NCBI RefSeq assembly: GCF_003018255.1
Contig: NZ_CP027440.1
Reading direction: 5' to 3' (one strand)
DNA from: Escherichia coli
GTDB lineage: Bacteria > Pseudomonadota > Gammaproteobacteria > Enterobacterales > Enterobacteriaceae
Length of the DNA: 64,000 nt
The position numbers and the translations under genes were made by a program. Positions 7,301 through 48,285 of the stretch are shown here, piece by piece (the first letter of the stretch is position 1; every line of letters starts with the position of its first letter). The notes below the pieces were generated by a model. It was given only the letters and a program-made list of their open reading frames with translations, searched no databases and was not told the DNA's origin.

Positions 7301-8255
7301 TTCGCATTTTATGTTTAAAAATTGAGATATTCCTCATTACCTAAAGCTGTTTTTCATTGCTTATACATGATCAAATACTCCTTACATAATTAAGGAGAAC
7401 AAAATGGAACTTAAAAAATTGATGGAGCATATTTCTATTATCCCAGATTACAGACAAGCCTGGAAAGTGGAACATAAATTGTCTGATATTCTACTGTTGA
7501 CTATTTGTGACGTTATTTCTGGTGCAGAAGGTTGGGAAGATATAGAGGATTTTGGGGAAACACATCTCGATTTTTTAAAACAATATGGTGATTTTGAAAA
7601 TGGTATTCCTGTTCACGATACCATTGCCAGAGTTGTATCCTGTATCAGTCCTGCAAAATTTCACGAGTGCTTTATTAACTGGATGCGTGACTGCCATTCT
7701 TCAGATGATAAAGACGTCATTGCAATTGATGGAAAAACGCTCCGGCACTCTTATGACAAGAGTCGCCGCAAGGGAGCGATTCATGTCATTAGTGCGTTCT
7801 CAACAATGCACAGTCTGGTCATCGGACAGATCAAGACGGATGAGAAATCCAATGAGATCACAGCTATCCCGGAACTTCTTAACATGCTGAATATTAAAGG
7901 AAAAATAATCACAACTGATGCGATGGGTTGCCAGAAAGATATTGCAGAGAAGATACAAAAACAGGGCGGTGATTATTTATTCGCTGTAAAAGGAAACCAG
8001 GGGCGGCTAAATAAAGCCTTCGAGGAAAAATTTCCGCTGAAAGAATTAAATAATCCAGAGCATGGCAGTTACGCAATGAGTGAAAAGAGTCACGGCAGAG
8101 AAGAAATCCGTCTTCATATTGTTTGCGATGTCCCTGATGAACTTATTGATTTCACGTTTGAATGGAAAGGGCAGCCATGGACAGAAAATATCTGGCGTCA
8201 GTCCTTGCGGGGAGCGTGCTTTCGTAATTTTGCCCTGCTACAACAGGATTAACTT
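7258..8255 (+). mobile_element. H-repeat (ISAs1-family) element remnant fused to the 3-prime end of the Rhs core
   Basis: Rhs homology stops after the DPLQG codons at about 7257; AT-rich leader then an H-repeat transposase ORF with an internal deletion; no terminal inverted repeat seen at the right end. Confidence 0.7.
7404..8252 (+). pseudogene. H-repeat-associated (ISAs1-family) transposase, internally deleted and frameshifted (282 codons; intact homologs are about 378 aa as I recall)
   Basis: N-terminus [35 protein letters not shown] typical of YhhI/YdcC-like H-repeat proteins; after ...FEWKG the frame changes and the expected C-terminus ([16 protein letters not shown]) is readable in another frame at 8177-8227. 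Confidence 0.75.
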
Positions 8256-8312
8256 CACAAACATCATTTGCCAACGTCTACACTTACTCCTGTTAATATC
8301 TCAGGAGCAGTA

Positions 8313-8822
8313 ATGAATCAGCAACGATTTGATGAAAGCACTCTAATCCGTATCTTCGCGCTTTATGAGTTACATCGACTGAAAGAACATGGCTTAACGC
8401 GCGGGGCACTCAACGATTATCACAGCCGCTATAAACTCGTCTTTCTGGCCCATTCCCAGCCCGAGTACCGCAAACTTGGCCCGTTCGTGGCTGATATTCA
8501 CCAGTGGCAAAATCTGGATGACTATTACAACCAGTACCGCCAACGCGTAGTTGTTTTGCTTTCTCACCCCGCCAACCGACGTGACCACACCAATGTTTTG
8601 ATGCACGTTCAGGGTTATTTTCGCCCTCATATTGATTCCACAGAACGCCAGCAGCTGGCGGCGCTTATCGACAGTTATCGCGGTGGCGAGCAACCGCTTC
8701 TTGCGCCGCTGATGCGTATCAAACACTATATGGCGCTTTATCCTGACGCCTGGCTTTCAGGGCAGCGTTATTTCGAACTTTGGCCGCGTGTGATTAACTT
8801 GCGCCATTCAGGAGTTTTATGA
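8313..8822 (+). CDS. ybgA: DUF1722 protein YbgA (169 aa)
   Basis: ORF MNQQRFDESTLIRIFALYELHRLKEHGLTRG...; stop overlaps phr start. Confidence 0.85.
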   Translation: MNQQRFDESTLIRIFALYELHRLKEHGLTRGALNDYHSRYKLVFLAHSQPEYRKLGPFVADIHQWQNLDDYYNQYRQRVVVLLSHPANRRDHTNVLMHVQGYFRPHIDSTERQQLAALIDSYRGGEQPLLAPLMRIKHYMALYPDAWLSGQRYFELWPRVINLRHSGVL

Positions 8823-10237
8823 CTACCCATCTGGTCTGGTTTCGCCAGGATTTACGTCAGCATGATAATCTCGCGCTGGCTGCCGCCTGCCGCAATTCGT
8901 CTGCAAGCGTGCTGGCGTTGTATATCGCTACACCACGCCAGTGGGCGGCGCATAATATGTCGCCGCGTCAGGCTGAATTTATCAATGCACAACTGAACGG
9001 GCTACAAATCGCGCTGGCGGAAAAAGGCATTCCTTTGCTGTTTCATGAAGTGGATGACTTTGCCGCCAGCGTCGAAATAGTTAAACAGGTGTGCGCGGAA
9101 AATCGTGTTACCCATCTGTTTTATAACTATCAGTATGAGGTGAATGAGCGGGCGCGGGATGTGCAGGCTGAGAGGGCGCTGCGTAACGTGGTGTGTGAAG
9201 GATTTGACGACGGCGTGATCCTGCCGCCGGGGGCGGTGATGACTGGCAATCATGAGATGTACAAAGTCTTTACGCCATTTAAAAACGCCTGGCTTAAACG
9301 GCTGCGAGAAGGGATGCCGGAGTGCGTCGCTGCGCCAAAAGTACGTAGTAGCGGATCGATAGATCCCGCGCCATCCATTACGCTGAATTATCCTCGTCAG
9401 CCTTTCGATACTGCGCATTTCCCGGTGGAAGAGAAAGCGGCGATTGCGCAATTACGCCAGTTTTGCCAGAACGGTGCCGGAGAGTATGAGCAACAGCGAG
9501 ATTTCCCTGCGGTAGAAGGCACCAGCCGTTTGTCCGCCAGCCTGGCAACGGGCGGGTTATCGCCTCGCCAGTGTTTGCATCGCCTGTTGGCGGAACAGCC
9601 GCAGGCGCTGGACGGTGGGGCCGGTAGTATCTGGCTTAATGAGCTGATCTGGCGCGAGTTTTACCGTCATCTGATAACGTATTACCCCTCGCTGTGTAAA
9701 CATCGTCCGTTTATTGTCTGGACCGACCGCGTGCAGTGGCAGAGCAATTCCGCGCATTTAAAGGCCTGGCAGGAAGGCAAAACGGGATACCCGATTGTTG
9801 ATGCTGCCATGCGTCAGCTTAACAGCACCGGCTGGATGCATAACCGGCTACGGATGATTACAGCCAGTTTTTTGGTGAAAGATTTATTGATCGACTGGCG
9901 CGAAGGTGAGCGATATTTCATGTCGCAGCTGATTGATGGTGATTTGGCAGCCAATAACGGTGGCTGGCAGTGGGCCGCTTCAACCGGAACCGATGCAGCG
10001 CCGTATTTTCGTATTTTTAACCCGACAACCCAGGGCGAGAAATTTGACCGTGAGGGCGAGTTTATCCGCCAGTGGCTACCGGAACTGCGCGATGTGCCAG
10101 GGAAAGTGGTGCATGAGCCGTGGAAGTGGGCGCAGAAAGCAGGTGTGACGCTGGATTATCCGCAACCGATAGTTGATCACAAAGAGGCAAGGCTGCGAAC
10201 GCTGGCAGCGTACGAAGAAGCGAGGAAAGGAGCCTGA
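8819..10237 (+). CDS. phr: Deoxyribodipyrimidine photolyase (472 aa)
   Basis: MTTHLVWFRQDLR... with FAD-binding C-terminal region (GWMHNRLRMITASFLVKDL, WQWAASTGTDAAPYFRIFNP). Confidence 0.95.
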   Translation: MTTHLVWFRQDLRQHDNLALAAACRNSSASVLALYIATPRQWAAHNMSPRQAEFINAQLNGLQIALAEKGIPLLFHEVDDFAASVEIVKQVCAENRVTHLFYNYQYEVNERARDVQAERALRNVVCEGFDDGVILPPGAVMTGNHEMYKVFTPFKNAWLKRLREGMPECVAAPKVRSSGSIDPAPSITLNYPRQPFDTAHFPVEEKAAIAQLRQFCQNGAGEYEQQRDFPAVEGTSRLSASLATGGLSPRQCLHRLLAEQPQALDGGAGSIWLNELIWREFYRHLITYYPSLCKHRPFIVWTDRVQWQSNSAHLKAWQEGKTGYPIVDAAMRQLNSTGWMHNRLRMITASFLVKDLLIDWREGERYFMSQLIDGDLAANNGGWQWAASTGTDAAPYFRIFNPTTQGEKFDREGEFIRQWLPELRDVPGKVVHEPWKWAQKAGVTLDYPQPIVDHKEARLRTLAAYEEARKGA

Positions 10238-10279: not shown

Positions 10280-11944
<1,665 letters not shown>

Positions 11945-12031
11945 TTAATATGTCAAAAGATTGGCTATCGACGAACAGGCGAGGTAACGCTATGTTAACG
12001 GTGTAGCTATCAGAATACGGAAGGCGCGAAG

Positions 12032-12775
12032 ATGAAAAACACCGAACTGGAACAACTGATTAACGAAAAACTGAACAGCGCGGCGATTAGTGATTACGCG
12101 CCGAATGGTTTGCAGGTGGAAGGCAAAGAGACGGTGCAAAAAATTGTTACCGGTGTCACCGCCAGCCAGGCTTTGCTCGATGAAGCGGTGCGTCTGGGCG
12201 CGGATGCGGTCATTGTGCATCATGGCTACTTCTGGAAAGGTGAATCTCCGGTCATTCGCGGAATGAAGCGTAACCGTTTAAAAACGTTGCTGGCGAATGA
12301 TATCAACCTGTATGGCTGGCATCTGCCCCTGGACGCGCATCCGGAGCTGGGTAATAACGCACAACTGGCGGCGTTACTGGGGATCACGGTCATGGGCGAA
12401 ATTGAGCCGTTGGTGCCGTGGGGCGAACTGACCATGCCTGTGCCGGGACTGGAACTGGCCTCCTGGATTGAAGCGCGTCTGGGACGTAAGCCGTTATGGT
12501 GTGGCGATACCGGACCTGAGGTGGTCCAGCGCGTCGCCTGGTGCACGGGCGGCGGGCAAAGTTTTATCGATAGCGCCGCGCGTTTTGGCGTGGATGCTTT
12601 TATTACTGGCGAAGTTTCTGAACAGACCATTCATTCAGCCCGCGAGCAGGGATTGCATTTTTATGCTGCGGGTCACCATGCCACTGAACGCGGTGGTATT
12701 CGCGCGTTGAGCGAGTGGCTGAATGAAAATACCGATCTTGATGTGACCTTTATTGATATTCCTAATCCTGCATAA
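12032..12775 (+). CDS. ybgI: NIF3-family metal-binding protein YbgI (247 aa)
   Basis: ORF MKNTELEQLINEKLNSAAISDYAPNGLQVEGKETVQKIVTGVTAS... Confidence 0.9.
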   Translation: MKNTELEQLINEKLNSAAISDYAPNGLQVEGKETVQKIVTGVTASQALLDEAVRLGADAVIVHHGYFWKGESPVIRGMKRNRLKTLLANDINLYGWHLPLDAHPELGNNAQLAALLGITVMGEIEPLVPWGELTMPVPGLELASWIEARLGRKPLWCGDTGPEVVQRVAWCTGGGQSFIDSAARFGVDAFITGEVSEQTIHSAREQGLHFYAAGHHATERGGIRALSEWLNENTDLDVTFIDIPNPA

Positions 12776-18930: not shown

Positions 18931-21390
18931 TTAATGACAAGGTAAAATCAGGCGATTTGCGGTGTCTTCCATATGTTCAGGAAGATGGAGCGAGCAACGC
19001 TGGCTATCACCCCAGATCACGGTAAATTGTTGATTTTCAGCGACTCCGCTTAACCAGGCATGTCCTTCCTCGCCAACCATCCCCACGCTAATGCCGCTGT
19101 TATCCTGGCGGATATCCGCACCGAGGGGAGGGAACTGACCGCTGGCGTTGCGAATGATGACGTTAACGTCTTTACCGGAACGGGAAGCCAGCGATTTGTA
19201 ACCTATCGCGCCTTCAATCCACGTTTCTTTGATAACGTTTTCTGCCACTGTTACGCCGTCGGGTAAGTCATTCATGTTCACCGCCACGGTGGAAGGCTGA
19301 TAACTGGAAATCAACGGCACCACCGCAATGCCAAAATGGTTGGTGTAGTCGAGATTGCCCTGAACCGGAATATCTGCCACGCCATCGGTACTGACCATCA
19401 GACGTGGTTCATTGGTGGAGCTGCGACGATGGAACGCCGCACCATATTGAGTTGCCGTGAAAGAACCGCTCCAGCTGCTGCTGACGGAACTGTAATCATT
19501 GGCGGCATAGGTACCAGAAATATCCCACTCACCCGCTGAACTCAGGTGCTGATAGTTACCGCTCACCTGGGCTCCATTATCCGGACGGTCGGATTGCAGT
19601 CCGGTAGACATGCCCCAGCTATTACGTTCATCTAACGTATCATTCCACGACATGCGGTGCGTGGTGCTGTGACTACTGTTTTGCATGTCATAACCGACCC
19701 GCCCCCCGTTACCGAAGGGGAGCGAAATCGACAGGTAAATCTGATTGTCGCGATCTTTATCTTCGTAATGGGTTGTATTGAATGACGTCGAGATCGAGAT
19801 ATCTCTCCAGTTACCAATATCAACATTAAAACCCGCCGTGATGTTGGCGGTCGTGGAGGCGTCTGCATTCCACCAGGTTTGATGCAGCAGGTTGGCGTAC
19901 AGATTGAGGTTCAGTGGGGTAATCGGTTGGCCCACGGATAAGCTGATCGTCTGTTTTTCGTCCTGCGCATCGCTGTTGTTGTATTTGTGATCCAGATAGT
20001 TGGCGTAGCTGTGAAAATGACGATCGGAGAAACGATAAGCGGCGAGCGAAATCGTGCTGTCGGTGGCATCCACTTGTTTGCTGTAATTAAAGCGGTAACT
20101 TAAGCCCCGCTCGTCCTGCTGAGTATCAAACTGACTACTGGCCCACGTGACATCAAACGACAATGCACCAAGCCACAGCATATTTTGCCCGATACCCATT
20201 GCGGCAGAATGGTAGTCGTCACCCGAAATCAGCAGGCCGCCGTACAGTGAGGTATTTGACAGCATCCCCCAGGAAACTTCATTGCTAAAAAAGGTTTCAT
20301 TTTCAGTTTGATGAGACATAGATGTTCGCGGCTGACCGGCAGCAAGTTTATAGCGAACCTGCCCCTGGCGCGTAAGGAAAGGCGTCGATGCTGCCGAAAC
20401 CTGGAAATTGTTCGCCCGACCATCTTCTTCCGTCACTTTGACATCTAACGTACCCTGGACGGACTGATTAAGGTCATCAATGATAAACGGACCTGGTGGG
20501 ACTTTCTTCTGGTAAATAACTCGCCCTGAGTGACTCACGGTGACGGTGGCGTTGGTTTGTGCAATGCCGCTGATTTGTGGGGCGTAGCCGCGTAGCTCCC
20601 ACGGTAACATCCGATCGTCACTTGCCAGTGCCGCGCCGGTATAAGAAAAGCCGTCGAAAATATTGGAACTGAAATCCGTTTCACCAAGGGTTAATTTTGA
20701 ACCTAATTGCGGTAATGGACGAAAAAGATAGGTGCGTGATATTTCGCCTGACTGTTCATGGTTATCATCGCTATCGGTCTGATTCAATTGGTAATCACTG
20801 CGTAAACGCCATGCTCCCGCGTTAATTCCGGCTGTTCCATAGGCGTTCAGGTTAGTGCTGTTGCTACCATCCTGTGGGCGGTAGCTGCTTGCAAACAGGT
20901 TGTAGTCCATCAGGACGCCGGCGACACCTTCTTTCCATGTTGAGGGGGGAGTCCAGTTATCTGAGTGCCACGCCAGCCAGGCTTGTGGAATAGTGATATT
21001 CAGTTGCTGGCTAGCCTGATCAAAAATGAAGAGAATTTCAGGCCGGGAGCTAAAATCGACGCACTGGTTTAACCGTGGTAACGACTGACGAACTTCAGGT
21101 TTTAAACCAAATTTATCTACCAGTAAATCATTAATACACGGAATGGTTTGGTCACCGTTCTTTTTCCAGTCAATTTTTTGTCCGTTACTGATTTGGTTGT
21201 TATTTACTGCAACGCTAACAAAATATTCACCGGGAACAATGACCCCTTTTCCCTTTAATAATGAAATATCAATGCGATCTCGCATCGATTTATCGAGGAC
21301 ATTCAGGTTGAATTCGACCGCCAATGCGCAAGGCATCGCCATGACCAGACAGGATATAAAAGAGAGTCGATAAATATTCACGGTGTCCAT
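18931..21390 (-). CDS. ybgQ: Fimbrial outer-membrane usher (about 819 aa)
   Basis: Large beta-barrel usher ORF; start taken at MDTVNIYRLSFISCLVMAMPCALA; exact start codon uncertain. Confidence 0.85.
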   Translation of the reverse strand: MDTVNIYRLSFISCLVMAMPCALAVEFNLNVLDKSMRDRIDISLLKGKGVIVPGEYFVSVAVNNNQISNGQKIDWKKNGDQTIPCINDLLVDKFGLKPEVRQSLPRLNQCVDFSSRPEILFIFDQASQQLNITIPQAWLAWHSDNWTPPSTWKEGVAGVLMDYNLFASSYRPQDGSNSTNLNAYGTAGINAGAWRLRSDYQLNQTDSDDNHEQSGEISRTYLFRPLPQLGSKLTLGETDFSSNIFDGFSYTGAALASDDRMLPWELRGYAPQISGIAQTNATVTVSHSGRVIYQKKVPPGPFIIDDLNQSVQGTLDVKVTEEDGRANNFQVSAASTPFLTRQGQVRYKLAAGQPRTSMSHQTENETFFSNEVSWGMLSNTSLYGGLLISGDDYHSAAMGIGQNMLWLGALSFDVTWASSQFDTQQDERGLSYRFNYSKQVDATDSTISLAAYRFSDRHFHSYANYLDHKYNNSDAQDEKQTISLSVGQPITPLNLNLYANLLHQTWWNADASTTANITAGFNVDIGNWRDISISTSFNTTHYEDKDRDNQIYLSISLPFGNGGRVGYDMQNSSHSTTHRMSWNDTLDERNSWGMSTGLQSDRPDNGAQVSGNYQHLSSAGEWDISGTYAANDYSSVSSSWSGSFTATQYGAAFHRRSSTNEPRLMVSTDGVADIPVQGNLDYTNHFGIAVVPLISSYQPSTVAVNMNDLPDGVTVAENVIKETWIEGAIGYKSLASRSGKDVNVIIRNASGQFPPLGADIRQDNSGISVGMVGEEGHAWLSGVAENQQFTVIWGDSQRCSLHLPEHMEDTANRLILPCH

Positions 21391-35015: not shown

Positions 35016-36992
35016 ATGGTATTGTTTTATCGGGCACACTGGCGCGACTATAAAAACGATCAAGTGAGGATCATGATGAACCTGACGACTCTGACCCACC
35101 GCGATGCGTTGTGTCTGAATGCGCGCTTTACCAGCCGTGAAGAGGCCATCCACGCGTTGACTCAACGTCTTGCTGCTCTGGGGAAAATTTCCAGTACTGA
35201 GCAATTTCTGAAAGAAGTGTATCGCCGTGAAAGCCTTGGCCCGACCGCCTTAGGTGAAGGGCTGGCTGTGCCGCATGGCAAAACTGCTGCGGTAAAAGAA
35301 GCGGCGTTTGCGGTCGCCACACTCAGCGAGCCGCTTCAGTGGGAAGGCGTGGATGGCCCGGAAGCGGTTGATTTAGTGGTGTTGCTGGCGATTCCCCCCA
35401 ATGAAGCGGGTACTACGCACATGCAACTGCTGACAGCGCTGACCACGCGCCTGGCGGATGATGAGATACGGGCGCGTATACAGTCGGCGACGACGCCTGA
35501 TGAATTGCTCTCGGCGCTGGATGACAAGGGAGGCACGCAACCCTCAGCTTCTTTTTCCAACGCGCCAACTATCGTCTGCGTAACGGCCTGCCCGGCGGGT
35601 ATTGCTCACACCTATATGGCTGCGGAGTATCTGGAAAAAGCCGGACGCAAACTCGGCGTGAATGTCTACGTTGAAAAGCAAGGTGCTAACGGCATTGAAG
35701 GGCGTTTAACGGCAGAGCAACTCAATAGTGCAACCGCCTGTATTTTTGCGGCTGAAGTCGCCATCAAGGAGAGTGAGCGTTTTAACGGCATTCCCGCGCT
35801 TTCTGTGCCTGTTGCCGAGCCGATTCGCCATGCAGAAGCGTTGATCCAACAAGCGCTTAACCTCAAGCGTAGCGATGAGACGCGTACCGTACAGCAAGAT
35901 ACGCAACCGGTGAAAAGCCTCAAAACGGAGCTAAAACAGGCACTGTTGAGCGGGATCTCTTTTGCAGTGCCGTTGATTGTCGCGGGGGGCACGGTGCTGG
36001 CGGTTGCGGTATTACTGTCGCAAATCTTCGGGCTACAAGATTTGTTTAATGAAGAAAACTCCTGGCTGTGGATGTACCGCAAACTGGGCGGAGGGCTGCT
36101 CGGGATTTTGATGGTACCGGTGCTGGCAGCCTACACCGCCTATTCACTGGCTGATAAACCGGCGTTAGCGCCAGGCTTTGCGGCTGGACTTGCCGCCAAC
36201 ATGATCGGTTCCGGGTTTCTCGGTGCTGTCGTTGGCGGATTGATAGCCGGTTATCTGATGCGCTGGGTGAAAAATCACTTGCGTCTTAGCAGTAAATTCA
36301 ATGGATTCCTGACTTTTTATCTCTACCCGGTGCTCGGTACGTTGGGAGCGGGCAGTCTGATGCTGTTTGTGGTGGGGGAACCTGTCGCCTGGATCAATAA
36401 CTCGCTTACCGCCTGGCTGAACGGTCTGTCAGGAAGTAACGCGCTGTTGCTGGGTGCCATTCTCGGTTTTATGTGTTCCTTTGACCTTGGAGGGCCAGTG
36501 AACAAAGCCGCTTATGCATTCTGCCTGGGCGCAATGGCGAACGGCGTTTACGGCCCGTATGCCATTTTCGCCTCCGTCAAAATGGTTTCGGCATTTACCG
36601 TAACCGCTTCCACGATGCTCGCACCGCGCCTGTTTAAAGAGTTTGAAATTGAGACCGGGAAATCCACCTGGCTGTTAGGGCTGGCAGGTATTACCGAAGG
36701 GGCGATCCCGATGGCGATTGAAGATCCGCTGCGGGTTATTGGTTCGTTTGTGCTGGGCTCTATGGTAACGGGCGCTATCGTCGGCGCGATGAATATCGGC
36801 CTTTCGACACCCGGTGCCGGCATTTTCTCGCTCTTTTTACTTCATGATAATGGCGCGGGCGGTGTTATGGCGGCAATTGGCTGGTTTGGTGCGGCATTGG
36901 TGGGGGCTGCAATCTCGACTGCAATTCTTCTGATCTGGCGGCGTCACGCGGTTAAGCATGGCAACTATCTGACTGATGGCGTAATGCCATAA
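35016..36992 (+). CDS. mngA: PTS 2-O-alpha-mannosyl-D-glycerate-specific EIIABC component (658 aa)
   Basis: EIIA (PTS-type) N-terminal domain, EIIB, and polytopic EIIC domain; divergent from mngR. Confidence 0.9.
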
Positions 36993-37009
36993 ACAAAAAG
37001 GAAACGACG

Positions 37010-39643
37010 ATGAAAGCGGTATCTCGCGTTCACATCACCCCGCATATGCACTGGGATCGGGAGTGGTATTTCACCACCGAAGAGTCACGCATTCTGCTGG
37101 TCAATAATATGGAAGAGATCCTGTGCCGACTGGAACAGGACAACGAATACAAATATTACGTACTCGACGGGCAAACGGCGATCCTCGAAGATTATTTCGC
37201 GGTGAAACCGGAAAACAAAGACCGTGTGAAGAAACAGGTAGAAGCAGGCAAGTTGATTATCGGCCCCTGGTATACCCAGACCGATACCACGATTGTTTCT
37301 GCGGAATCCATCGTCCGTAATCTGATGTACGGAATGCGTGACTGCCTCACGTTTGGCGAGCCGATGAAAATAGGTTATTTACCAGATTCCTTTGGCATGT
37401 CCGGGCAACTGCCGCATATTTACAATGGATTTGGCATTACCCGCACCATGTTCTGGCGCGGATGTTCTGAGCGCCACGGTACTGATAAAACCGAGTTTTT
37501 GTGGCAAAGCAGTGACGGTAGCGAAGTGACGGCGCAGGTGCTGCCGCTGGGCTACGCCATCGGTAAGTACTTACCTGCCGACGAAGACGGATTACGCAAA
37601 CGCCTCGACAGTTATTTTGATGTGCTGGAAAAAGCGTCAGTAACCAAAGAGATTTTGCTGCCGAATGGTCATGACCAGATGCCATTGCAGCAAAATATCT
37701 TCGAAGTGATGGATAAGCTACGTGAGATCTACCCTCAACGTAAGTTTGTGATGAGCCGCTTTGAAGAGGTATTTGAGAAGATCGAAGCGCAGCGAGATAA
37801 TCTGGCAACCCTGAAAGGGGAATTTATTGATGGCAAATATATGCGCGTGCATCGCACCATCGGTTCTACGCGTATGGATATCAAAATTGCCCACGCGCGT
37901 ATTGAAAATAAGATTGTTAATCTGCTGGAACCGCTGGCAACGCTGGCCTGGACGTTGGGTTTTGAATACCACCACGGCTTGCTGGAGAAATTGTGGAAAG
38001 AAATTTTAAAAAACCACGCCCATGACAGCATCGGCTGCTGCTGTAGTGACAAAGTTCATCGCGAGATTGTCGCCCGTTTCGAACTGGCAGAAGACATGGC
38101 GGATAATCTGCTGCGTTTCTATATGCGTAAAATTGCCGATAACATGCCACAGAGTGATGCCGACAAACTTGTGCTGTTTAACCTGATGCCCTGGCCGCGG
38201 GAAGAAGTGATCAACACCACTGTGCGGCTGCGCGCCAGCCAGTTTAATTTGCGGGACGATCGCGGTCAGCCTGTACCGTATTTTATTCGCCATGCCCGTG
38301 AGATCGATCCTGGCCTAATCGATCGGCAAATCGTTCATTACGGTAATTATGATCCCTTTATGGAGTTTGATATTCAGATCAACCAGATTGTCCCTTCTAT
38401 GGGCTATCGCACGCTTTATATCGAAGCGAATCAGCCTGGCAACGTGATTGCGGCAAAAAGTGACGCTGAAGGGATACTGGAAAATGCTTTCTGGCAAATT
38501 GCGCTCAATGAGGATGGAACGCTACAACTGGTAGATAAAGACAGCGGTGTGCGCTATGACCGGGTGTTGCAAATTGAAGAAAGCTCTGATGATGGTGATG
38601 AATATGACTATTCACCCGCAAAAGAAGAGTGGGTAATTACTTCGGCGAACGCGAAACCGCAATGCGAGATTACTCATGAGGCCTGGCAGAGTAGGGCTGT
38701 TATCCGCTATGACATGGCGGTGCCGCGTAATCTGCATGAACGCAGCGCAAGACAATCCACTGGCAGAGTAGGGGTGGAGTTGGCTGTCACTCTGAGTGAT
38801 AACAGCAGGCGCATTGATGTGGATATCAACCTTGATAACCAGGCTGACGATCATCGCCTTCGCGTCCTGGTCCCTACACCTTTTAACACCGACAGTGTTC
38901 TGGCCGATACCCAGTTTGGTTCGCTAACGCGCCCCGTGAACGACAGTGCAATGAACAACTGGCAGCAAGAAGGCTGGAAAGAAGCGCCGGTTCCGGTATG
39001 GAATATGCTCAACTATGCTGCCTTACAGGAAGGGCGTAACGGTCTGGCTGTCTTTAGCGAAGGGCTACGTGAATATGAAGTCATCGGTGAAGAGAAGAAA
39101 ACCTTTGCCATTACGTTGCTGCGTGGCGTGGGCTTACTGGGGAAAGAAGATCTGCTTTTAAGGCCTGGACGTCCTTCAGGAATAAAAATGCCGGTGCCCG
39201 ATTCACAATTACGTGGCTCCTTTAGCTGCCGTCTGAGCTTATTTAGTTATACAGGTACGCCTTCGACCGCCGGTGTAGCCCAGCAGGCGCGCGCATGGCT
39301 GACGCCAGTACAGTGTTACAACAAAATCCCGTGGGATGCGATGAAGTTAAATAAAGCCGGATTCAATGTGCCGGAAAGCTATAGCTTGCTGAAAATGCCC
39401 CCTGTGGGATGCCTGATTAGCGCTCTTAAAAAAGCGGAAGACCGGCAAGAAGTGGTATTGCGACTGTTTAATCCGGCAGAATCGACAACCTGTGAGGCAA
39501 CTGTCGCGTTCAGTCGTGAGGTGATTTCATGTACGCAAACGATGATGGATGAAAGCATCAGCACAGCGGAAAGAGATAATTTAAAGGAACTGGGGGCATT
39601 TTTACCGGGGCAGTCACGGACATTTAGCTACCGCCTTGGCTGA
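37010..39643 (+). CDS. mngB: Alpha-mannosidase, glycoside hydrolase family 38 (877 aa)
   Basis: [38 protein letters not shown]... GH38 signature. Confidence 0.93.
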
Positions 39644-39681
39644 TTATTGCGCTAAAAGTGTATCTGAGGGGGGCAATAATT

Positions 39682-39712
39682 TCAGGCCATCTTCGGATGG
39701 CCTGAGATTGTT
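39682..39712 (+). terminator. Probable terminator after mngB
   Basis: Hairpin TCAGGCCATC-TTCG-GATGGCCTGA followed by a T-rich stretch. Confidence 0.55.
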
Positions 39713-39787
39713 GATAAACAAGTTTGTTAGCTTACGCAGATACCAGATTTGACCTGCGTGAGAACCGCAGGCCATTTATCATTTCAG

Positions 39788-41185
39788 TTACCCCTTAAAC
39801 GTTAACCACGGTCGAAATCTGACCGCTGGCTGAATTAATCCGGCTTCTTGTTGGGCTTCGATAACCGGACCAATATCTTTATAAGCCGCTGGCGCTTCTT
39901 CAAAACGTCGTTCTTCGCGCAATGTGACGCATTGCCACGGCAGCGTTGACTCTTCAGTCGCGCGTGAGCGCATGGCCTGCCGACGCTGGCTGCGTCCTGC
40001 TCCGTGACTGCATGACCACAGCCACTCCGGGTTGCCGCAACCTACCGCAAGCCACGAATAATCGCCCATTGAACCGGGGATTAACGCCAGATTGCCCACT
40101 CGTGCCGGTGTTGCGCCTTTGCGATGAATATTCATTTCATGCTCGCGAAGGATGATGTTATGTGGCACATCCACCACCAGATGCGAATTGTCCTGATGAA
40201 AGAGATTGGCAAGACATACGCGCACCATTTCGGCAATTGTGACGCGATTTAACCATGCGTAACGCGCCGCCATTCCTATCGCTTGTAGATATTCCTCCGC
40301 CAGTCCGCCTGCCAGACCATATAACCCGCTTTGTGGATGTTTATGTCCGGTGGGCCATTCAGCACGGGCGCGATCCATCCAGCGTCTTCCGACGTAAAAG
40401 CCAACATCTCGCGATCCACTGTGGATCATCACCACAATATCGCCTGTTTTCAGCCCTTGTTGCCAGGCTACATGGCGATCAACCACGCTATCAACGACCT
40501 GAAGTTCAATAAAATGATTACCTGAACCCGGCGTACCCAGACAAGGATCGCGGAGTAATGCGCGGTCCGTTGCCTGCAGGGCGGGTGGGGCATAACGCGA
40601 ATGACTGTTATGCTCGTTAAGCCCAATGCAGCGGTCAATCTCTTGTACCATTCGGGGGATATTCGTGCGTATCCAGAGACCTTCTGATGGCAAGGTCGAC
40701 ACGCAATCTGCCGGTCCGCCATCAAAAAGCGCGGTGAACGCCTGTGCGGATAACGGAACATCGCGCTCATTTTGCAGTAGCACTTGCGTTAACCGCTGAG
40801 CGATGACGTCTTTATGCGCTTCGGCTTGCTCAAGTGTTAATCCGGTCGTCAGCAGCCGCATGCCACAAGAAATATCGGTGCCGATGGCGGCGGGAATGAC
40901 TAAATCCGGCGTTGAGGCCACCACCGCGCCAACGGGGACGCCATTGCCGGGATGAAAATCTGGCGTCGCGCACGTCTGGCGCACATAACCTGGGTGGTCT
41001 GGTAGCTTCACTTCTGCAAAATCAAGCAGTTGTGTTACTGCTTTTTCTTCCAGCGGCAGTTCGTCCGGCAGCAGTACGCGGGCACTGGCACCTGATGGAC
41101 GAGATAATGAAACAATATTGTTGGCGCGGGAAAGTTGGATCCCTTTGCGCAGAAAGGCTTTATCAAGCCTTGAAAGATGATGCAT
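39788..41185 (-). CDS. RtcB-family RNA 3-prime-phosphate ligase paralog (465 aa), orphan
   Basis: Conserved RtcB motifs: TPDFHPGNG, IPAAIGTDISCGMRLL, GTPGSGNHFIELQ, MIHSGSRDVG, IPGSMG, CSHGAGR, AYKDIGPVIEAQ; N-terminus about 30 aa longer than canonical RtcB; start codon uncertain. Confidence 0.85.
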   Translation of the reverse strand: MHHLSRLDKAFLRKGIQLSRANNIVSLSRPSGASARVLLPDELPLEEKAVTQLLDFAEVKLPDHPGYVRQTCATPDFHPGNGVPVGAVVASTPDLVIPAAIGTDISCGMRLLTTGLTLEQAEAHKDVIAQRLTQVLLQNERDVPLSAQAFTALFDGGPADCVSTLPSEGLWIRTNIPRMVQEIDRCIGLNEHNSHSRYAPPALQATDRALLRDPCLGTPGSGNHFIELQVVDSVVDRHVAWQQGLKTGDIVVMIHSGSRDVGFYVGRRWMDRARAEWPTGHKHPQSGLYGLAGGLAEEYLQAIGMAARYAWLNRVTIAEMVRVCLANLFHQDNSHLVVDVPHNIILREHEMNIHRKGATPARVGNLALIPGSMGDYSWLAVGCGNPEWLWSCSHGAGRSQRRQAMRSRATEESTLPWQCVTLREERRFEEAPAAYKDIGPVIEAQQEAGLIQPAVRFRPWLTFKG

Positions 41186-41490
41186 AACGCTGTCCTGAAA
41201 TATAGACGTTAAACAACCCCCTGTATGGCGAGGGTAATTTTGTCTTTCCGGTCAGCAGCCAGCAAAAGGGAAAGAAAACGCGCGTAGTGTATGTGGCGAT
41301 AGCAAGTGTTACAAGTGGTAAATCTGGCTTATTGTTAAAGAGGAATTATCTTTTGTGAAGTCTTTTAAGGCCATGACTCATTCAATTTAACCGGACATAG
41401 ATAATATATAACATAGGGTATCTAAATTTATCATTGTATACTTGTCATAATTCAAGTTGCATGTGCTGCATCGATGTTCGCTCACCCAGG

Positions 41491-42060
41491 TCACTTACTT
41501 ATGTAAGCTTCTGGAAATTCATTATTTGTTCCCTTCCTGCAACTTGACTTATTTAGAGTATATTCATGTATACACATCGAGATTTCAGCCAGCAGACGCG
41601 CATCTGGCGTGCCGTGGCGGATCTGTAGCGGTTTTTGCAGAGTTTCGGTGAGGCGACGGCAAGCTGCAACGCCGTGGTTAACGACCGGTAAACCGTTCAG
41701 TTTAGAGGTTCCGGCTTCGATGGATTTTTTAATCCCTACAGCCGCTTCTTCGTACCGATTCAGACGGGTATATGCATCGATGGTGCTCGGCAGCAGATCG
41801 CACTCTTCTTGTAGTGTTTTCAGTAGTTCGATGTGTTCGTCCATCAGCGCCACACCTGCGCGCGGTTGGCTAAGGGTTTTACCTTCCTTGTCTGCTTTCA
41901 ACAGCGCAAGAGAGAAGCGTTTATGCTCAGGAATGGTTTGTTGGTATTTAACGCCATCTTCAAAGTTTTCAACATCCTTGCCGGTTTCCCAGGTTTTCAG
42001 TACCTGTTGCCGCTCGGTCATGAATTCGTCATGGGTTAATTTCTTATTTCGAAGTTCCAT
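41491..42060 (-). pseudogene. glmE: Glutamate mutase E (epsilon) subunit, truncated: 189 codons versus about 480 in intact homologs
   Basis: [33 protein letters not shown]...[20 protein letters not shown]...[15 protein letters not shown]...[13 protein letters not shown] resembles the GlmE N-terminus; similarity ends near codon 165, then 24 unrelated codons and stop. Confidence 0.75.
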
Positions 42061-42078
42061 TGATTGCAGCCTTAATTG

Positions 42079-43467
42079 TTATAGGGTTAAGCATTGAATA
42101 CTGGTGCGCGCGGCGGCCAGCGGATCGACTCTGGCGACGTTTGCCAGCAGTGGTAATAGCCCCCGGGAATCGCGGTAATATTCAAATTCGGTCGGTAAGA
42201 GAATGCGTTTACCGTCGTCGTTTAACTCGCGGTATTTCAACCAGTGATGCATATCGAACTGACTGGCACGCGAGAGCCATCCGCCGGATCCGACGACTTT
42301 ACGCACGGTTGTCAGGTCACGTCCCATCTGTAAATCGACATTGCCGACGCAGGTGCAGACCTCTTTTTTGGTGCCCGCATGTCTTTCGGTGGCATAACCC
42401 ACACACAGTCCGGCCAGGACGGTATCGAAATATTTTTCTTCTGCATTCGCGGGTAAGTAGTCGGGATGAGCGACTAGATGACGGAGGTAATGATAAAAAG
42501 CGTCCAGCTGTGCGGGTTGCTGAGCAAAATTCACATTGACTAACTCTTTCGCACTTTCACCAACCACCATTGCCGAGACGCGCATTCCCAGATCTCCTTC
42601 CACCGTCCGTTTTACGAAGGGTTCCGGTACGCCATGTAAAACAGTGTCGGGCGAGAGCGTGTTGGCACTGGCGGAATAGACATCGGTGGTTGCGCCACCC
42701 ATGTCGATCAGCATGAACTCTTTCCAGCTGTGATCGACATTACTGATTGCCTTAACCAGTTCAAAGACTGTCCACGGTGTCGGCATTGGTTCTTCGCCTG
42801 TTTTATCAACAACGACATCCAGCCCTTTCCCTTTAACGATGCGTTTAAGGAATATGTCGCAGATAGCCTGGCGTGCAGCTAAAGGGTTCGGATGGTCAAG
42901 ATCGGGCAGAACGTTGTCGACGATGGTCAGGTCTTTATGCCCGAGGATCTCCTGCACCTCGTCCTGAATATCCCGGTTTCCGGCATAAATAATGGCGCAG
43001 TCGAGTTTGGATTCTGCCAACACACGGGCGTTATTCAGTCCGTAGCTTTCTTCTCCGCCATCGGTGCCGCCGGTGAACAAGAGAATATCGGGCTGCGTTT
43101 CTTCCAGTGCCTGGATATCACGGCGGTTCAGCTTGTAGGCGTAAGATTGCGCAATTTTAGCACCCGCAGAGTGAGCGGTTACTTTCGCGGTTTCCAGGGT
43201 GATAGAAGGCACCAATCCCATTGCGGCAACCGCCAGCCCACCTTTGGCAGAGGAGGAATACTTCAATGCAACCTCACCACTGTTTAACAGGGGGAGGGCA
43301 TCATCTACGTTTAACACCTGGTCCAGGCTGGAGAAAAACCCCTTCGCCAGATGATGGGTGGTGGTTGGGGTCAGTACGTGGTTAACCAACGTTAACGCGT
43401 CCCCCTCCCGGGCGAAGAGGGCTGCTTTGGTCCACGTCGATCCAATATCGACAGAGACGATTTGCAT
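42079..43467 (-). CDS. glmL: Glutamate mutase accessory protein GlmL/MutL-like (462 aa)
   Basis: [18 protein letters not shown]... actin/Hsp70-like ATPase fold; translationally coupled to glmS (TGATG overlap); placed between glmS and glmE as in clostridial operons. Confidence 0.75.
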   Translation of the reverse strand: MQIVSVDIGSTWTKAALFAREGDALTLVNHVLTPTTTHHLAKGFFSSLDQVLNVDDALPLLNSGEVALKYSSSAKGGLAVAAMGLVPSITLETAKVTAHSAGAKIAQSYAYKLNRRDIQALEETQPDILLFTGGTDGGEESYGLNNARVLAESKLDCAIIYAGNRDIQDEVQEILGHKDLTIVDNVLPDLDHPNPLAARQAICDIFLKRIVKGKGLDVVVDKTGEEPMPTPWTVFELVKAISNVDHSWKEFMLIDMGGATTDVYSASANTLSPDTVLHGVPEPFVKRTVEGDLGMRVSAMVVGESAKELVNVNFAQQPAQLDAFYHYLRHLVAHPDYLPANAEEKYFDTVLAGLCVGYATERHAGTKKEVCTCVGNVDLQMGRDLTTVRKVVGSGGWLSRASQFDMHHWLKYRELNDDGKRILLPTEFEYYRDSRGLLPLLANVARVDPLAAARTSIQCLTL

Positions 43468-43916
43468 CAGATTGCCTCTTCAAGAATACGAGTATCAACG
43501 TCATGACGTTGGTTGATATCGTGGGCCATCAGCTGACAAACATCTTCTAAGTCATGACTTGGGGCAAAGACGCGATCAAATCCCATCTCTTTGAATTTGG
43601 TTTCCACGTCAGCGAAGTCATGTTTTCCGACCACCAGGTTACCGCCCACATAGAGCAGGATGTCCCCCAGTCCACGCTCGATGCAGCGTTCGCGCATGCC
43701 CAGACAGTCGATATCGCCATGCCCATAGATAGAGGAGACGACAATCGCGTCAGCACCAGTTTCAATGGCAGCATCAATATATTCGTCCTGGCTGACCATT
43801 ACGCCCAGATTAATAACTCTGAAGTCATGGTTGCTAAAAACGCGGTCCAGAACTTTATTGCCTACTGCATGGCAGTCCGCGCCAATAACGCCAATCACAA
43901 GTGTTGCTTTCTTCAT
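43467..43916 (-). CDS. glmS: Glutamate mutase S (sigma) subunit, B12-binding (149 aa)
   Basis: [24 protein letters not shown]... with the DxHxxG cobalamin-binding motif; AGGA RBS 7 nt upstream of this ATG (the listed ORF extends 21 codons further upstream). Confidence 0.8.
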
Positions 43917-44463
43917 GGGTAATCCTTTGTAAGACAGAGAGTAAAATAAGTTACACACGTCGTATTTATGGCCGCTCATAACGGCACAGGTTTAATATCA
44001 CAGGAGTGTCTTTATCTGACCGTAATGTTGCAATTGATCTATTTTCAAAATGTCTTTCGGGAAATGATTGTTTAAAGTGTGTTTTCAAATTCTCATGTTA
44101 ATTCAGTGTGTTATGTCAACTAATGTCATGAATGTTAAATTTTTAAAATTAACTTGATTTGATGTATTGAGATAATTGTGATCAACTTCTAATTTGCATT
44201 TTAGTGATATGGGGTTAGCCATGAGTAAATGCATTTCATAAAAGTTAAGTCGAATTTCACTGCAATTCATCTCTGCTTAATGTAAAAATAATGTTGAAAA
44301 TAACAAATAATTAATGATTCATGCGAATTATGACCTTTGTTAGCTCTTTTGATTTTTCGTAAAAAAGAAAAGTACATGAAGGTGCTACCAGTACGAGAAA
44401 CGTTAATCAAAAGTTTTATTACGTCTGGCAATAACGCAGGCCATTTTTCGCGACAGGAGGGAT

Positions 44464-44886
44464 TTAATCAGTATAATCCTCATACAATAGGTCAGGATTT
44501 ACAGAACCGTTAACGGGGTTTTGGTGTTGAAATTTAGAAATGGTGGAGTCAATCAATGAAGACAGTATCGAAAAAATGACTGTGTCAGAATTAATTTCAA
44601 TTAATCCTTCTCGTTGTTGACCAAAAAAGATATTTATCTTGATTTCATTTGTACTACGGAAATCAATATGTAGTAATTTTTGATCGCTGAGATTTTCTGT
44701 TTCATAAATGTTTTTGGCGATAGTCGGATGTATTGATGCCAGACATCTGCTCAGATAAGCCAGATCCTTTAGGGAACACCCCGCTGAGTAGAGGATGTCA
44801 GAGAATTTTTGTGTGTCAACTGTTGGCTCTGAAGCGTATGTTGCATTGACTGGAAGGGTGTTGAAGGAGATTTGAGATGGGATCAT
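44464..44886 (-). CDS. Hypothetical protein (140 aa), small and acidic, low GC
   Basis: Intact ORF MIPSQISFNTLPVNATYASEPTVDTQKF...; no recognisable motif; sits in an AT-rich segment of the island. Confidence 0.5.
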   Translation of the reverse strand: MIPSQISFNTLPVNATYASEPTVDTQKFSDILYSAGCSLKDLAYLSRCLASIHPTIAKNIYETENLSDQKLLHIDFRSTNEIKINIFFGQQREGLIEINSDTVIFSILSSLIDSTISKFQHQNPVNGSVNPDLLYEDYTD

Positions 44887-44966
44887 TATTTAAATCTTTC
44901 CGTGAGTAATAAAAATTAATCCCCGGGCATTGTTTAGTAATATTTGCCACAGGGGATATATAAAAA

Positions 44967-45911
44967 TTAAAGTATTTGATTGGCATCGGTTAACTGATCA
45001 ATAACCAGTGCCAGATTGGTAAACATTTTGAAAAAGCGATACTGGCTCGGAATATCTCTTTCAAAGACGAAACATTCAATGTCATTGTTTGAAAAATAAA
45101 GGACTAGTGATGCTGATTCGTCAGGAAAAATATGGAAATATATCTGGTTACCAGAAGGAGGATAGTCCAGAAGAAGGGTATCTTTGCCCGTCACATACCT
45201 GTTGTGGTCGTGGATGCTGCGCTCACACTTCATCAGAGGTGTCATGATACTCATGTATTCATCTGATGTTAATATATTAAAATCACCATCCATTTTAAAG
45301 AAACGATAAAGTAACAGTACATCCTCTTGCGTAACCGGTTCGTTTGTTTTTAGAGGGAAATAAGTGGGAACCAGAAGATGAGGTTCTAATCTATTTTGTT
45401 GAGCGCTATAACTAAATTTGAACATAAATTCCGGATCGCTCATCAATTGAGCGACATAATTATGCCTGGCTTCAAAAATTTTAACTTTTATCAGGTTAAA
45501 TAAGTCTGTTTCGTCATCCTGTATTAAAAGACATTGGCCATAGCAGCCAGGCTTTTTTTCATTATAAGCAGAAACGGTTATTCTGTCAGGAGTGTCAACG
45601 TTATATCCAAAAGCCAGATAGTGACCTTCCTCATCGAGATTTGTTTCCAGGTTATTTAAATTCATCACATGAAGTGTTTGCAATGCTGATTCAATGAGCT
45701 GTTGACTCTCTGAGGTAAATGTTTCGCGCTGCGTTGTATAAAGTGTATCGATTCCAACGACTATCCGATGTGGGTCAAGGATGGCGGCAATCATCTTTAT
45801 TACCTGCACAGTCATGGGTGATGTCATTGATTCTTTATCTGTTTTTAGAGGATCATTAGATGGCCAACCTGAGAAGCGATTGACAGCAGAACTGATAATA
45901 TCAGGACTCAT
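44967..45911 (-). CDS. Hypothetical protein (314 aa), low GC
   Basis: Intact ORF MSPDIISSAVNRFSGWPSNDPLKTDKESM...; GAGG RBS 8 nt upstream of ATG; no signal peptide or TM helix evident; no family recognised. Confidence 0.6.
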   Translation of the reverse strand: MSPDIISSAVNRFSGWPSNDPLKTDKESMTSPMTVQVIKMIAAILDPHRIVVGIDTLYTTQRETFTSESQQLIESALQTLHVMNLNNLETNLDEEGHYLAFGYNVDTPDRITVSAYNEKKPGCYGQCLLIQDDETDLFNLIKVKIFEARHNYVAQLMSDPEFMFKFSYSAQQNRLEPHLLVPTYFPLKTNEPVTQEDVLLLYRFFKMDGDFNILTSDEYMSIMTPLMKCERSIHDHNRYVTGKDTLLLDYPPSGNQIYFHIFPDESASLVLYFSNNDIECFVFERDIPSQYRFFKMFTNLALVIDQLTDANQIL

Positions 45912-46365
45912 AGCAGCAACCTCATTGTAATCAAGCGAGGCGCTGAGCGTACTCGGCTATAGAAAAACTAACTTGCAAAAATCGCTCATTTTTCATTTAT
46001 CAGGCGAAAGTGGTCTCTGTTCACTCAGAAACAATCACTCCCGCTAAGTCATACCTGTTTCATCGATACATTTAAGTGATTATTACTAATGAAACAATAA
46101 CATAATGGGCTTACGGCCGGTGCTCATAAACGCAACAATCAATTAACTTTGATAAAAATATGTTATGTAAAATAGCAACAAATTGGCTAATCTAATCAAT
46201 TGGTATTATAAAAAGTGGATAAGGCGGTTCTGTTAAATAAAACACTGGTTTTTTATCTATACCTTTTCATTGTAATAATTGTGTTGCATAAATATTTCAC
46301 AATAAATTAACAATAAAATCACCAATGATCTATGGTTTATACATAATTAACATATTTGGTTGATT

Positions 46366-46379
46366 TTGATATAAATCAA
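46366..46379. promoter_or_regulatory. FNR/CRP-type palindromic site in the cydA upstream region
   Basis: Perfect TTGAT-ATAA-ATCAA (TTGAT N4 ATCAA) about 340 bp upstream of cydA in an AT-rich leader. Confidence 0.55.
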
Positions 46380-46716
46380 TTTTTAATTCTTGAAAAAAAT
46401 CTGCAAAACACGATAAATTGTCGTAGATCAAATTGGTGAGATCGTGACAATTTCGCTATAAATTGATCACTGTCGAAAAATGCAAATTTGCTCAATAAAA
46501 ACCTGTTTATTGTAAGGATTTTGCGGCGTAATATAATTACGGGATCAATTTGGTTTATTCATTAACACATTTGTAACTTTTTTATCATTGTCTTTTCCTC
46601 TTTTGATGAAATGGCAACGATAGAGGCGAGCAAATAATTTTGTATTGGGGCATGCGTGTGACCCTTTCTAACGGGGTTCACTCTCGGAGTCTTCATGCGA
46701 TGAGCAAGGAGTCATG

Positions 46717-48285
46717 ATGTTAGATATAGTCGAACTGTCGCGCTTACAGTTTGCCTTGACCGCGATGTACCACTTCCTTTTTGTGCCACTGACGCTCGGT
46801 ATGGCGTTCCTGCTGGCCATTATGGAAACGGTCTACGTCCTTTCCGGCAAACAGATTTATAAAGATATGACCAAGTTCTGGGGCAAGTTGTTTGGTATCA
46901 ACTTCGCTCTGGGTGTGGCTACCGGTCTGACCATGGAGTTCCAGTTCGGGACTAACTGGTCTTACTATTCCCACTATGTAGGGGATATCTTCGGTGCGCC
47001 GCTGGCAATCGAAGGTCTGATGGCCTTCTTCCTCGAATCCACCTTTGTAGGTCTGTTCTTCTTCGGTTGGGATCGTCTGGGTAAAGTTCAGCATATGTGT
47101 GTCACCTGGCTGGTGGCGCTCGGTTCAAACCTGTCCGCACTGTGGATTCTGGTTGCGAACGGCTGGATGCAAAACCCAATCGCGTCCGATTTCAACTTTG
47201 AAACTATGCGTATGGAGATGGTGAGCTTCTCCGAGCTGGTGCTTAACCCGGTTGCTCAGGTGAAATTCGTTCACACTGTAGCGTCTGGTTATGTGACTGG
47301 CGCGATGTTCATCCTCGGTATCAGCGCATGGTATATGCTGAAAGGTCGTGACTTCGCCTTCGCTAAACGCTCTTTTGCTATCGCTGCCAGCTTCGGTATG
47401 GCTGCCGTTCTGTCTGTTATTGTTCTGGGTGATGAATCTGGTTACGAAATGGGCGACGTGCAGAAAACCAAACTGGCTGCTATTGAAGCCGAGTGGGAAA
47501 CGCAACCTGCGCCTGCTGCCTTTACTCTGTTCGGCATTCCTGATCAGGAAGAGGAGACGAACAAATTTGCGATCCAGATCCCTTACGCGCTGGGCATCAT
47601 TGCAACGCGTTCCGTGGATACTCCAGTTATCGGCCTGAAAGAACTGATGGTGCAGCATGAAGAACGCATTCGTAACGGGATGAAGGCGTACTCTCTGCTC
47701 GAGCAACTGCGTTCTGGTTCTACCGACCAGGCGGTTCGTGACCAGTTCAATAGCATGAAGAAAGACCTCGGTTACGGTCTGCTGCTGAAACGCTATACGC
47801 CAAACGTGGCTGATGCGACTGAAGCGCAGATTCAACAGGCAACCAAAGACTCCATTCCGCGTGTAGCGCCGCTGTACTTCGCGTTCCGTATCATGGTGGC
47901 GTGTGGCTTCCTGCTGCTGGCAATCATCGCGCTCTCTTTCTGGAGTGTCATCCGCAACCGCATTGGCGAGAAAAAATGGCTGCTGCGCGCCGCGCTGTAC
48001 GGTATTCCGCTGCCGTGGATTGCTGTAGAAGCGGGCTGGTTCGTGGCTGAATATGGTCGCCAACCGTGGGCTATCGGTGAAGTGCTGCCGACAGCTGTGG
48101 CGAACTCGTCACTGACCGCAGGCGATCTCATCTTCTCAATGGTGCTGATTTGCGGCCTGTATACCCTGTTCCTGGTGGCAGAATTGTTCTTAATGTTCAA
48201 ATTTGCACGCCTCGGCCCAAGCAGCCTGAAAACCGGTCGCTATCACTTTGAGCAGTCTTCCACGACTACTCAGCCGGCACGCTAA
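46717..48285 (+). CDS. cydA: Cytochrome bd-I ubiquinol oxidase subunit I (522 aa)
   Basis: [41 protein letters not shown]... Confidence 0.97.

Follow-up and report, generated by a model that had tools for sequence, protein, structure and literature searches.

The enterobacterial genes that the locus described here most resembles by style are AT-rich, lineage-restricted orphan genes (ORFans) of the kind silenced by H-NS. The locus, a pair of adjacent genes for proteins of 314 and 140 amino acids (aa), lies next to cydA in a 64,000-nucleotide stretch of Escherichia coli DNA (RefSeq assembly GCF_003018255.1, contig NZ_CP027440.1), the whole of which is called the window below. Like H-NS-silenced ORFans, the pair combines a guanine-plus-cytosine (GC) content of 35-38% in a genome of 51% GC with hypothetical products, a patchy distribution and a lack of homologs outside the genus, and it adjoins the cydAB promoter region, which is reportedly bound by H-NS in strain K-12. 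It differs from many of them in being old, predating the split between E. coli and Escherichia albertii, in being fixed in position and in being measurably constrained. The protein families themselves are undescribed.

Other described systems share some of these traits. Backbone-encoded effectors and chaperones of type III secretion systems (T3SSs), such as those of the EspX/EspY type or Tir-CesT (by way of analogy, not homology), are likewise of low GC content, restricted in range and fast evolving, and they are also soluble proteins without a Sec signal, with polar, Ser/Thr/Pro-rich N-termini and a small acidic neighbour. The pair differs from them in showing no sequence or profile similarity, in having a partner that is dispensable species-wide, and in the conservation of the N-terminal 100 residues of the larger protein. 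Type II toxin-antitoxin and toxin-immunity pairs also consist of two co-oriented genes, one of which encodes a small acidic product, but here no family match was found, both proteins are acidic, the genes are 80 nucleotides (nt) apart, the partners are lost singly and the locus is not mobile. Finally, the pair adjoins a glutamate mutase (methylaspartate) cluster on the same strand and is co-inherited with it within E. coli. In enterobacteria, this cluster comprises a LysR-type transcriptional regulator (LTTR), CobA, FumD, GltP, DUF1446, Mal and GlmE/L/S (Kronen et al., PMC4682846), and it occurs in Klebsiella, Citrobacter, Salmonella, Yersinia, Morganella and E. fergusonii, where it was described without the pair (PMC4682846). 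By contrast with the genes of this cluster, the pair is absent from the cluster in other genera, is present without the cluster in E. albertii and has a different base composition.

The explanation preferred in this study, to which somewhat less than an even chance is given, is that of an orphan locus restricted to Escherichia that would be silenced and expressed conditionally, with the 314-aa protein as its functional unit and the 140-aa protein as a helper.

Coding status, protein families and independence of the two genes

Both genes lie on the minus strand and start with ATG, the 314-aa open reading frame (ORF) at positions 44967-45911 and the 140-aa ORF at 44464-44886, in different frames and separated by a spacer of 80 nt (44887-44966, minus strand). 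Both ORFs are genuine coding sequences, which evolve fast and on which purifying selection is weak. Stop-free runs of this length are not expected by chance (probabilities at this base composition of about 3e-11 for 314 codons and about 2e-5 for 140 codons) and the ratio of nonsynonymous to synonymous substitution rates (dN/dS) is below 1. When the window allele was set by the Nei-Gojobori method against the E. albertii ortholog and four further alleles of E. coli, dN/dS came to 0.32-0.52 in the larger gene and 0.2-0.4 in the smaller. The excess of synonymous changes was significant in the 314-aa gene, both against E. albertii (P=5e-7, Fisher test) and against the E. coli allele that diverges most (P=1e-5), and also, for the 140-aa gene, in the comparison with this last allele (P=6e-4). 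The dN to E. albertii amounted to 0.22 in the 314-aa gene and to 0.0017 in the neighbouring cydA. In a spread sample of E. coli carriers, full-length copies were found in 38 of 40, as judged by alignment length and leaving nonsense mutations aside. Between species, the most conserved parts of the 314-aa protein are the N-terminal ~100 residues, notably the stretch IAAILDPHRIxVGIDTLYT, and the last ~15 residues. De novo birth from the region upstream of cydA is an unlikely origin for this gene, given the chance of about 3e-11 of an open frame of 314 codons at 35% GC; acquisition from an unsampled source, or divergence past recognition, is more plausible.

Much of the original prediction for this locus, which had proposed a low-GC, two-gene module, agreed with what was measured. 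Both ORFs are intact, co-oriented and 80 bp apart at the coordinates expected, and the anticipated GC content of about 38% against a background of about 51% compares with a measured 0.374 for the pair region (44464-45911; 0.382 and 0.371 for the two ORFs) and 0.512 for the window. The adjoining genes have GC contents of 0.52 (glmS-glmL) and 0.53 (cydAB), and at third codon positions the pair reaches 0.35-0.36, compared with 0.58-0.62 in its neighbours. Of the ribosome-binding sites, both of which had been called usable, that of the 314-aa ORF is good, with a GAGG Shine-Dalgarno sequence at 45920-45923, 8 nt ahead of the ATG, whereas that of the 140-aa ORF is weak (GGAAAG, about 12 nt upstream). 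The small protein, foreseen as acidic and of about 15 kDa, has a computed mass of 15.7 kDa and an isoelectric point (pI) of 4.65, and the 314-aa protein is likewise acidic (36.3 kDa, pI 4.69). Both products are soluble: maximum Kyte-Doolittle hydropathy over 19 residues was 1.25 and 1.37, and therefore neither contains a transmembrane segment or a signal peptide, as had been proposed. Because the spacer carries no terminator-like site (the terminator and promoter scans performed at or near chance level), the two ORFs are likely to be co-transcribed. The length of the spacer differs by 1 nt between strains, leaving the ORFs unaffected, and a scan of positions 43500-47000 against Rfam returned zero families.

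The two protein families are undescribed and have no detectable relatives outside the genus Escherichia. The original prediction, which had recognised no catalytic motif and had seen in the pair a candidate for something undescribed, was borne out by searches that returned no family, structure or paper. Both products are labelled "hypothetical protein" by RefSeq in all genomes examined, and uncharacterised or hypothetical in UniProt. No significant match to either protein was obtained in Pfam (searched with single sequences and with each alignment member alone), NCBIfam or PADLOC, nor among PDB sequences (phmmer and profile searches), and the single match in PHROGs, of the 140-aa protein to a family of unknown function, was non-significant (E=0.05). 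A word-indexed search of 5.8 billion protein clusters with both proteins retrieved Escherichia and Shigella sequences only. When 1.84 billion representatives were searched in full with a HMMER profile of the 314-aa protein, fragments of that protein were all that was retrieved. No nuclease, nucleoside triphosphatase (NTPase), TIR, SIR2 or membrane domain was detected in either protein, and BLASTP and hhalign revealed no significant paralogy between the two proteins or between the halves of the larger one. For the 140-aa protein, a low-confidence AlphaFold2 model predicts an N-terminus that is disordered and rich in Ser, Thr, Pro and Asn, followed by three helices, a sheet of three strands, one long helix and an acidic tail.

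Two origins that the original prediction had itself raised were not found for either ORF, namely homology to proteins of the methylaspartate pathway and descent from a larger gene. The reading of the two ORFs as fragments of one larger gene was rejected: relatives are 314 or 140 aa long (partial or frameshifted copies aside), E. albertii keeps the same 314-codon ORF and stop, and the two ORFs do not share a reading frame. A 195-aa fusion with a DUF5711 domain (P0038) was set aside as the likely product of a chimeric metagenome contig of 1.7 kb.

The pair is not obligate, since its genes have been lost singly, and the 314-aa gene is retained without the 140-aa gene. Each of the five E. albertii strains examined has an intact 314-aa gene, whereas its 140-aa gene is reduced to a trace of 31 residues (48-52% identity) broken by stops; of 14 other members listed in the E. 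albertii cluster, 12 likewise have the 314-aa protein at full length. Similarly, the 140-aa gene is frameshifted and the 314-aa gene intact in E. coli 99-3311, and single E. coli strains were found in which either gene is frameshifted while the other remains intact. The 314-aa gene is thus the better conserved member of the pair and the 140-aa gene the dispensable one. Both genes are disrupted by IS4-family elements in Br_112, and 160-aa variants of the small protein with an altered C-terminus also circulate. A further candidate for a frameshifted 140-aa gene beside an intact partner (P0047) was discarded, as its assembly abounds in frameshifts and has even cydA in pieces.

Other rearrangements of the locus were also observed. 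In Escherichia sp. MOD1-EC7003 (locus 8001-9400), both genes are decayed and the adjoining glmS-L-E genes are intact. The 314-aa gene of this strain contains a repeat of the enterobacterial repetitive intergenic consensus (ERIC) type at 8387-8408, with one mismatch to the ERIC2 primer sequence; a second, similar repeat apparently lies near 9058-9318. In E. coli MEI003 (locus 301-405), the 3' end of the 140-aa gene is partially duplicated in tandem, with ~327 bp of extra sequence, and both full genes are intact.

Distribution and chromosomal setting

Among 5426 complete genomes of E. coli, 1134 carry the pair, with nucleotide identities of 91-99.9%. Carriers include O157:H7, O55:H7, O145:H28, CE10 and sequence type 38 (ST38), which belong to phylogroups E, F and D; in O157:H7 Sakai, the two genes are probably ECs0765 and ECs0766. 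The coding regions of the pair leave no trace in K-12 and in LF82 (phylogroup B2). Two further carriers, E. albertii and Escherichia sp. MOD1-EC7003, emerged from a scan of GTDB species representatives. The E. albertii ortholog of the 314-aa protein is 64% identical and occupies the same position, the cryptic-clade strain MOD1-EC5189 has an intact copy of the 314-aa gene, and Shigella dysenteriae retains fragments only. The same scan returned two metagenome bins, labelled Collinsella sp. and Citrobacter sp., whose copies of the 314-aa gene, 98-99% identical, most likely stem from contaminating E. coli contigs.

In all cases examined, the locus adjoins cydA directly and is transcribed divergently from it. 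No phage match was obtained, nor any genuine plasmid copy, the three "plasmid" matches being records of 0.73-4.9 Mb in which chromosomal sequence was filed as plasmids. These data are most simply explained by a locus of ancestral Escherichia that was passed on vertically and has disappeared on several occasions. The locus has been at the cydA-proximal end of the variable interval between sucD and cydA since before E. coli and E. albertii split.

In the window, the gene order is sdh-suc-mngRAB-rtcB-(glmE remnant)-glmL-glmS-(140 aa)-(314 aa)-cydAB-tol-pal. The interval between sucD and cydA behaves as a variable slot with alternative contents (window 36000-46713; LF82 locus 697-1812; E. albertii locus 11786-12562). 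It holds mngRAB in K-12, a 371-aa tetratricopeptide repeat (TPR) protein in LF82 (B2), a 258-aa outer-membrane-type protein together with the 314-aa gene in E. albertii, the glm island and the pair, without mngRAB, in O157:H7, and mngRAB, rtcB, a truncated glm island and the pair in the window strain.

The glm island of the window is itself reduced. The glmE remnant (41491-42060) comprises the first ~160-190 codons of the gene, and is annotated by RefSeq as a pseudogene in the near-identical strain JNE23-011. Its break coincides with an ERIC repeat, also known as an intergenic repeat unit (IRU), at 41479-41500, with two mismatches to the ERIC2 primer, and a gene of the RtcB family (rtcB, 39788-41185) follows next after the remnant. 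The cluster genes missing from the window are mal, DUF1446, gltP, fumD, cobO and the LTTR gene. With glmE truncated and the rest of the cluster missing, the methylaspartate pathway is dead in the window strain. The glmS-glmL allele of the window was found at an identity of at least 99% in only about 11 complete genomes.

The AT-rich tract and the leader of the 314-aa gene

The pair and its flanks lie in an AT-rich tract, to which no strand is assigned, that extends from glmS to cydA (43980-46713). Its AT-richness relative to the host is marked, with a GC content of 0.35 compared with 0.512 for the window. In its cydA-proximal part, the tract consists of the regulatory region that cydAB and the divergently oriented 314-aa gene share. 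Two near-consensus TCGATAAATT motifs, of the kind associated with H-NS nucleation, are present in 45912-46713, and together with the base composition they make silencing of the pair by H-NS plausible. Over its whole length, the window contains 12 near-consensus matches to TCGATAAATT, three of which fall within 270 bp at 21110-21376, distant from the pair.

The leader or promoter-proximal segment of the 314-aa gene (45912-45996, minus strand, ~85 nt) is conserved across species, being ~90% identical among E. coli, E. albertii and MOD1-EC7003, compared with 77.5% for the 314-aa ORF. In a hairpin predicted both by the RNAalifold consensus and by the centroid fold, an upstream GCGCCUCG pairs with the Shine-Dalgarno sequence. 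This hairpin is no more stable than shuffled sequence; since its z-score is 0.26 and no covariation was detected, it is retained as a lead only, a hint of a putatively regulated leader.

The region upstream of cydAB varies in its own right. That of K-12 is ~80% identical to the window (window 46341-46716 against MG1655 locus 1501-1877), and those of the window, O157:H7, LF82 and E. albertii are ~90-100% alike, so that K-12 carries the divergent cydAB promoter haplotype; all have an identical or near-identical CydA. The conserved blocks of the region include a perfect FNR-type palindrome, TTGAT-N4-ATCAA, at window positions 46366-46379.

Weighing the explanations

According to the preferred explanation, the pair would be an AT-rich operon that is kept silent as a rule, probably by H-NS, and switched on in certain conditions only, by way of the conserved leader. 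The 314-aa protein would be the functional unit, a soluble acidic alpha/beta factor acting alone in the cytoplasm or exported without a Sec signal, and the 140-aa protein would assist without being essential, in the manner of an adaptor or chaperone, and would have been retained only in E. coli and clades close to it; the pair would not work as a poison-antidote module. The benefit would be niche-specific (gut or host-associated), which would explain retention in phylogroup D, E and F strains and in E. albertii, as well as loss elsewhere. Several points weigh against this explanation. Transcription, translation, H-NS binding and a phenotype are all putative in it, the part of helper is a guess for the 140-aa protein, whose function may have nothing to do with that of the 314-aa protein, and a literature search found no publication on these genes. 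The description of the 314-aa product as a soluble alpha/beta protein rests on low-confidence secondary structure: AlphaFold2, run on shallow alignments, gave predicted local distance difference test (pLDDT) scores of 43.5 for the 314-aa protein and 41.2 for the 140-aa protein. With models of such low pLDDT, three fold searches were uninformative and their matches are taken as noise, Foldseek returning only the protein's own family from AFDB50 and a best E-value of 0.25 from PDB. Moreover, dN/dS values of 0.3-0.5 are also compatible with a slow loss of function, and pseudogenes recur in the E. albertii type strain, MOD1-EC7003, Shigella dysenteriae and some E. coli, as fits slow decay.

Taken further, these last observations would make the genes relics, formerly functional, now effectively neutral in most lineages and persisting because decay is slow. 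This is considered unlikely, as dN/dS is significantly below 1 in all deep comparisons, the 314-codon frame has survived a synonymous divergence (dS) of ~0.5 in AT-rich DNA, where stops arise easily, the sampled E. coli carriers (38/40) and most E. albertii variants are full length, and the leader is more conserved than the coding sequence. A comparably low probability is given to the 314-aa protein, and perhaps also the 140-aa protein, being a substrate of a T3SS, either the E. coli type III secretion system 2 (ETT2) or that of the enterocyte effacement locus (LEE), with the small protein as a second substrate or a class I chaperone. Consistent with export, Ser, Thr, Pro, Asn and Gln make up 44% (314-aa protein) and 52% (140-aa protein) of the first 25 residues, compared with 30% and 36% overall, the N-termini contain one Leu each and are predicted to be disordered (in low-confidence models), and low-GC, taxon-restricted, fast-evolving genes with a small acidic neighbour would fit such a role. 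The carriers of known phylogroup (D, E and F), together with E. albertii, coincide in part with lineages in which ETT2 or LEE is retained, a correspondence at the level of phylogroups that is confounded by phylogeny. Phylogroup B2, which has no ETT2 (PMC7058095), also lacks the pair. Nevertheless, no match to CesT or to any other chaperone or effector family was found, the 140-aa protein having none in Pfam even at E<=10, and its helix-helix-helix-strand-strand-strand-helix order, in a model of pLDDT 41, differs from that of class I chaperones. In the 314-aa protein, the N-terminal 100 residues show the highest conservation and are not a loose signal, and the locus is on the chromosomal backbone, outside prophages and effector islands. 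A chaperone role is further weakened by E. albertii, in which the supposed effector is intact and its putative chaperone has been lost throughout, because a dedicated chaperone is not normally lost species-wide while its client is kept. The more specific proposal that the 314-aa protein founds a new, Escherichia-specific family of T3SS substrates, backbone-encoded and exported by ETT2 (or by LEE in enterohaemorrhagic E. coli and E. albertii), with the 140-aa protein as a second substrate or dispensable chaperone, would be a little less probable still.

The remaining alternatives fare worse, and the data on the neighbouring island bear most directly on one of them, that the pair encodes accessory or regulatory factors of the methylaspartate (glutamate fermentation) operon that lies downstream in the same orientation. 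The distributions within E. coli are nearly identical (1134 genomes with the pair and 1135 with glmS-glmL, of 5426), and no terminator is predicted past the 140-aa gene; physical linkage explains this co-distribution as well as function does. However, in E. albertii the 314-aa gene sits between cydA and sucD with zero glm genes, the clusters of other genera are without the pair (PMC4682846), and no pair homolog was found in Klebsiella, Citrobacter, Salmonella, Yersinia, Morganella or E. fergusonii among HMMER representatives or in the GTDB species scan. A gap of 15 points in GC content (37% compared with 52%) separates the pair from the glm genes, and in the window both ORFs are intact beside a pathway broken by truncation of glmE at the ERIC element and by the absence of mal, fumD and the remaining cluster genes. 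The link between pair and island is therefore physical and not functional, and an accessory role is very unlikely. The original prediction had placed the pair inside the island and unrelated to it; the lack of relation stands, and its placement has to be amended, as the pair is an older, separate resident of the cydA flank that is co-inherited with glm in E. coli. Its suggestion of a two-part module was weakened by the species-wide retention of the 314-aa gene with a decayed partner in E. albertii and by the single-gene frameshifts in E. coli, and with it the toxin-immunity and defence roles lost ground. A toxin-antitoxin or toxin-immunity pair would fit adjacent co-oriented genes in AT-rich DNA, one of them small and acidic, and is nonetheless highly improbable: zero toxin, antitoxin or immunity families were matched, both proteins are acidic, the genes are separated by 80 nt instead of overlapping, the locus is inherited vertically without mobile copies, and each gene occurs disrupted with the other intact, whereas an active poison-antidote pair would not survive the loss of either partner. 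The case for a small anti-phage defence system, the least probable of the alternatives considered, comes from the setting, in which two low-GC genes form a cassette in a chromosomal slot that is variable and filled differently from lineage to lineage. Neither protein matched any PADLOC-DB family (0 for both at E<=1) or showed the catalytic or membrane domains searched for, the members are retained independently, and inheritance is strictly vertical at one fixed locus, with no relatives in other genera, phages or plasmids.

As they stand, the present results contain no pointer to a new mechanism. Their main value lies in ruling out, to the low probabilities given above, the toxin-antitoxin, defence and pathway-accessory readings, and in identifying the larger gene as an autonomous unit. 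A solved structure of either protein would add to fold space, as neither has detectable relatives or a reliable prediction. ETT2 has few proposed substrates and an unclear role, and the T3SS substrate reading, if true, would give a cargo of ETT2 that is encoded outside the ETT2 and eip islands. If, as the preferred explanation holds, the orphan locus has a conditional function, its genes would mark a subset of E. coli lineages (O157:H7, O55:H7, O145:H28, and the extraintestinal ST38 and CE10) together with E. albertii, and would possibly be factors in the biology of these bacteria.

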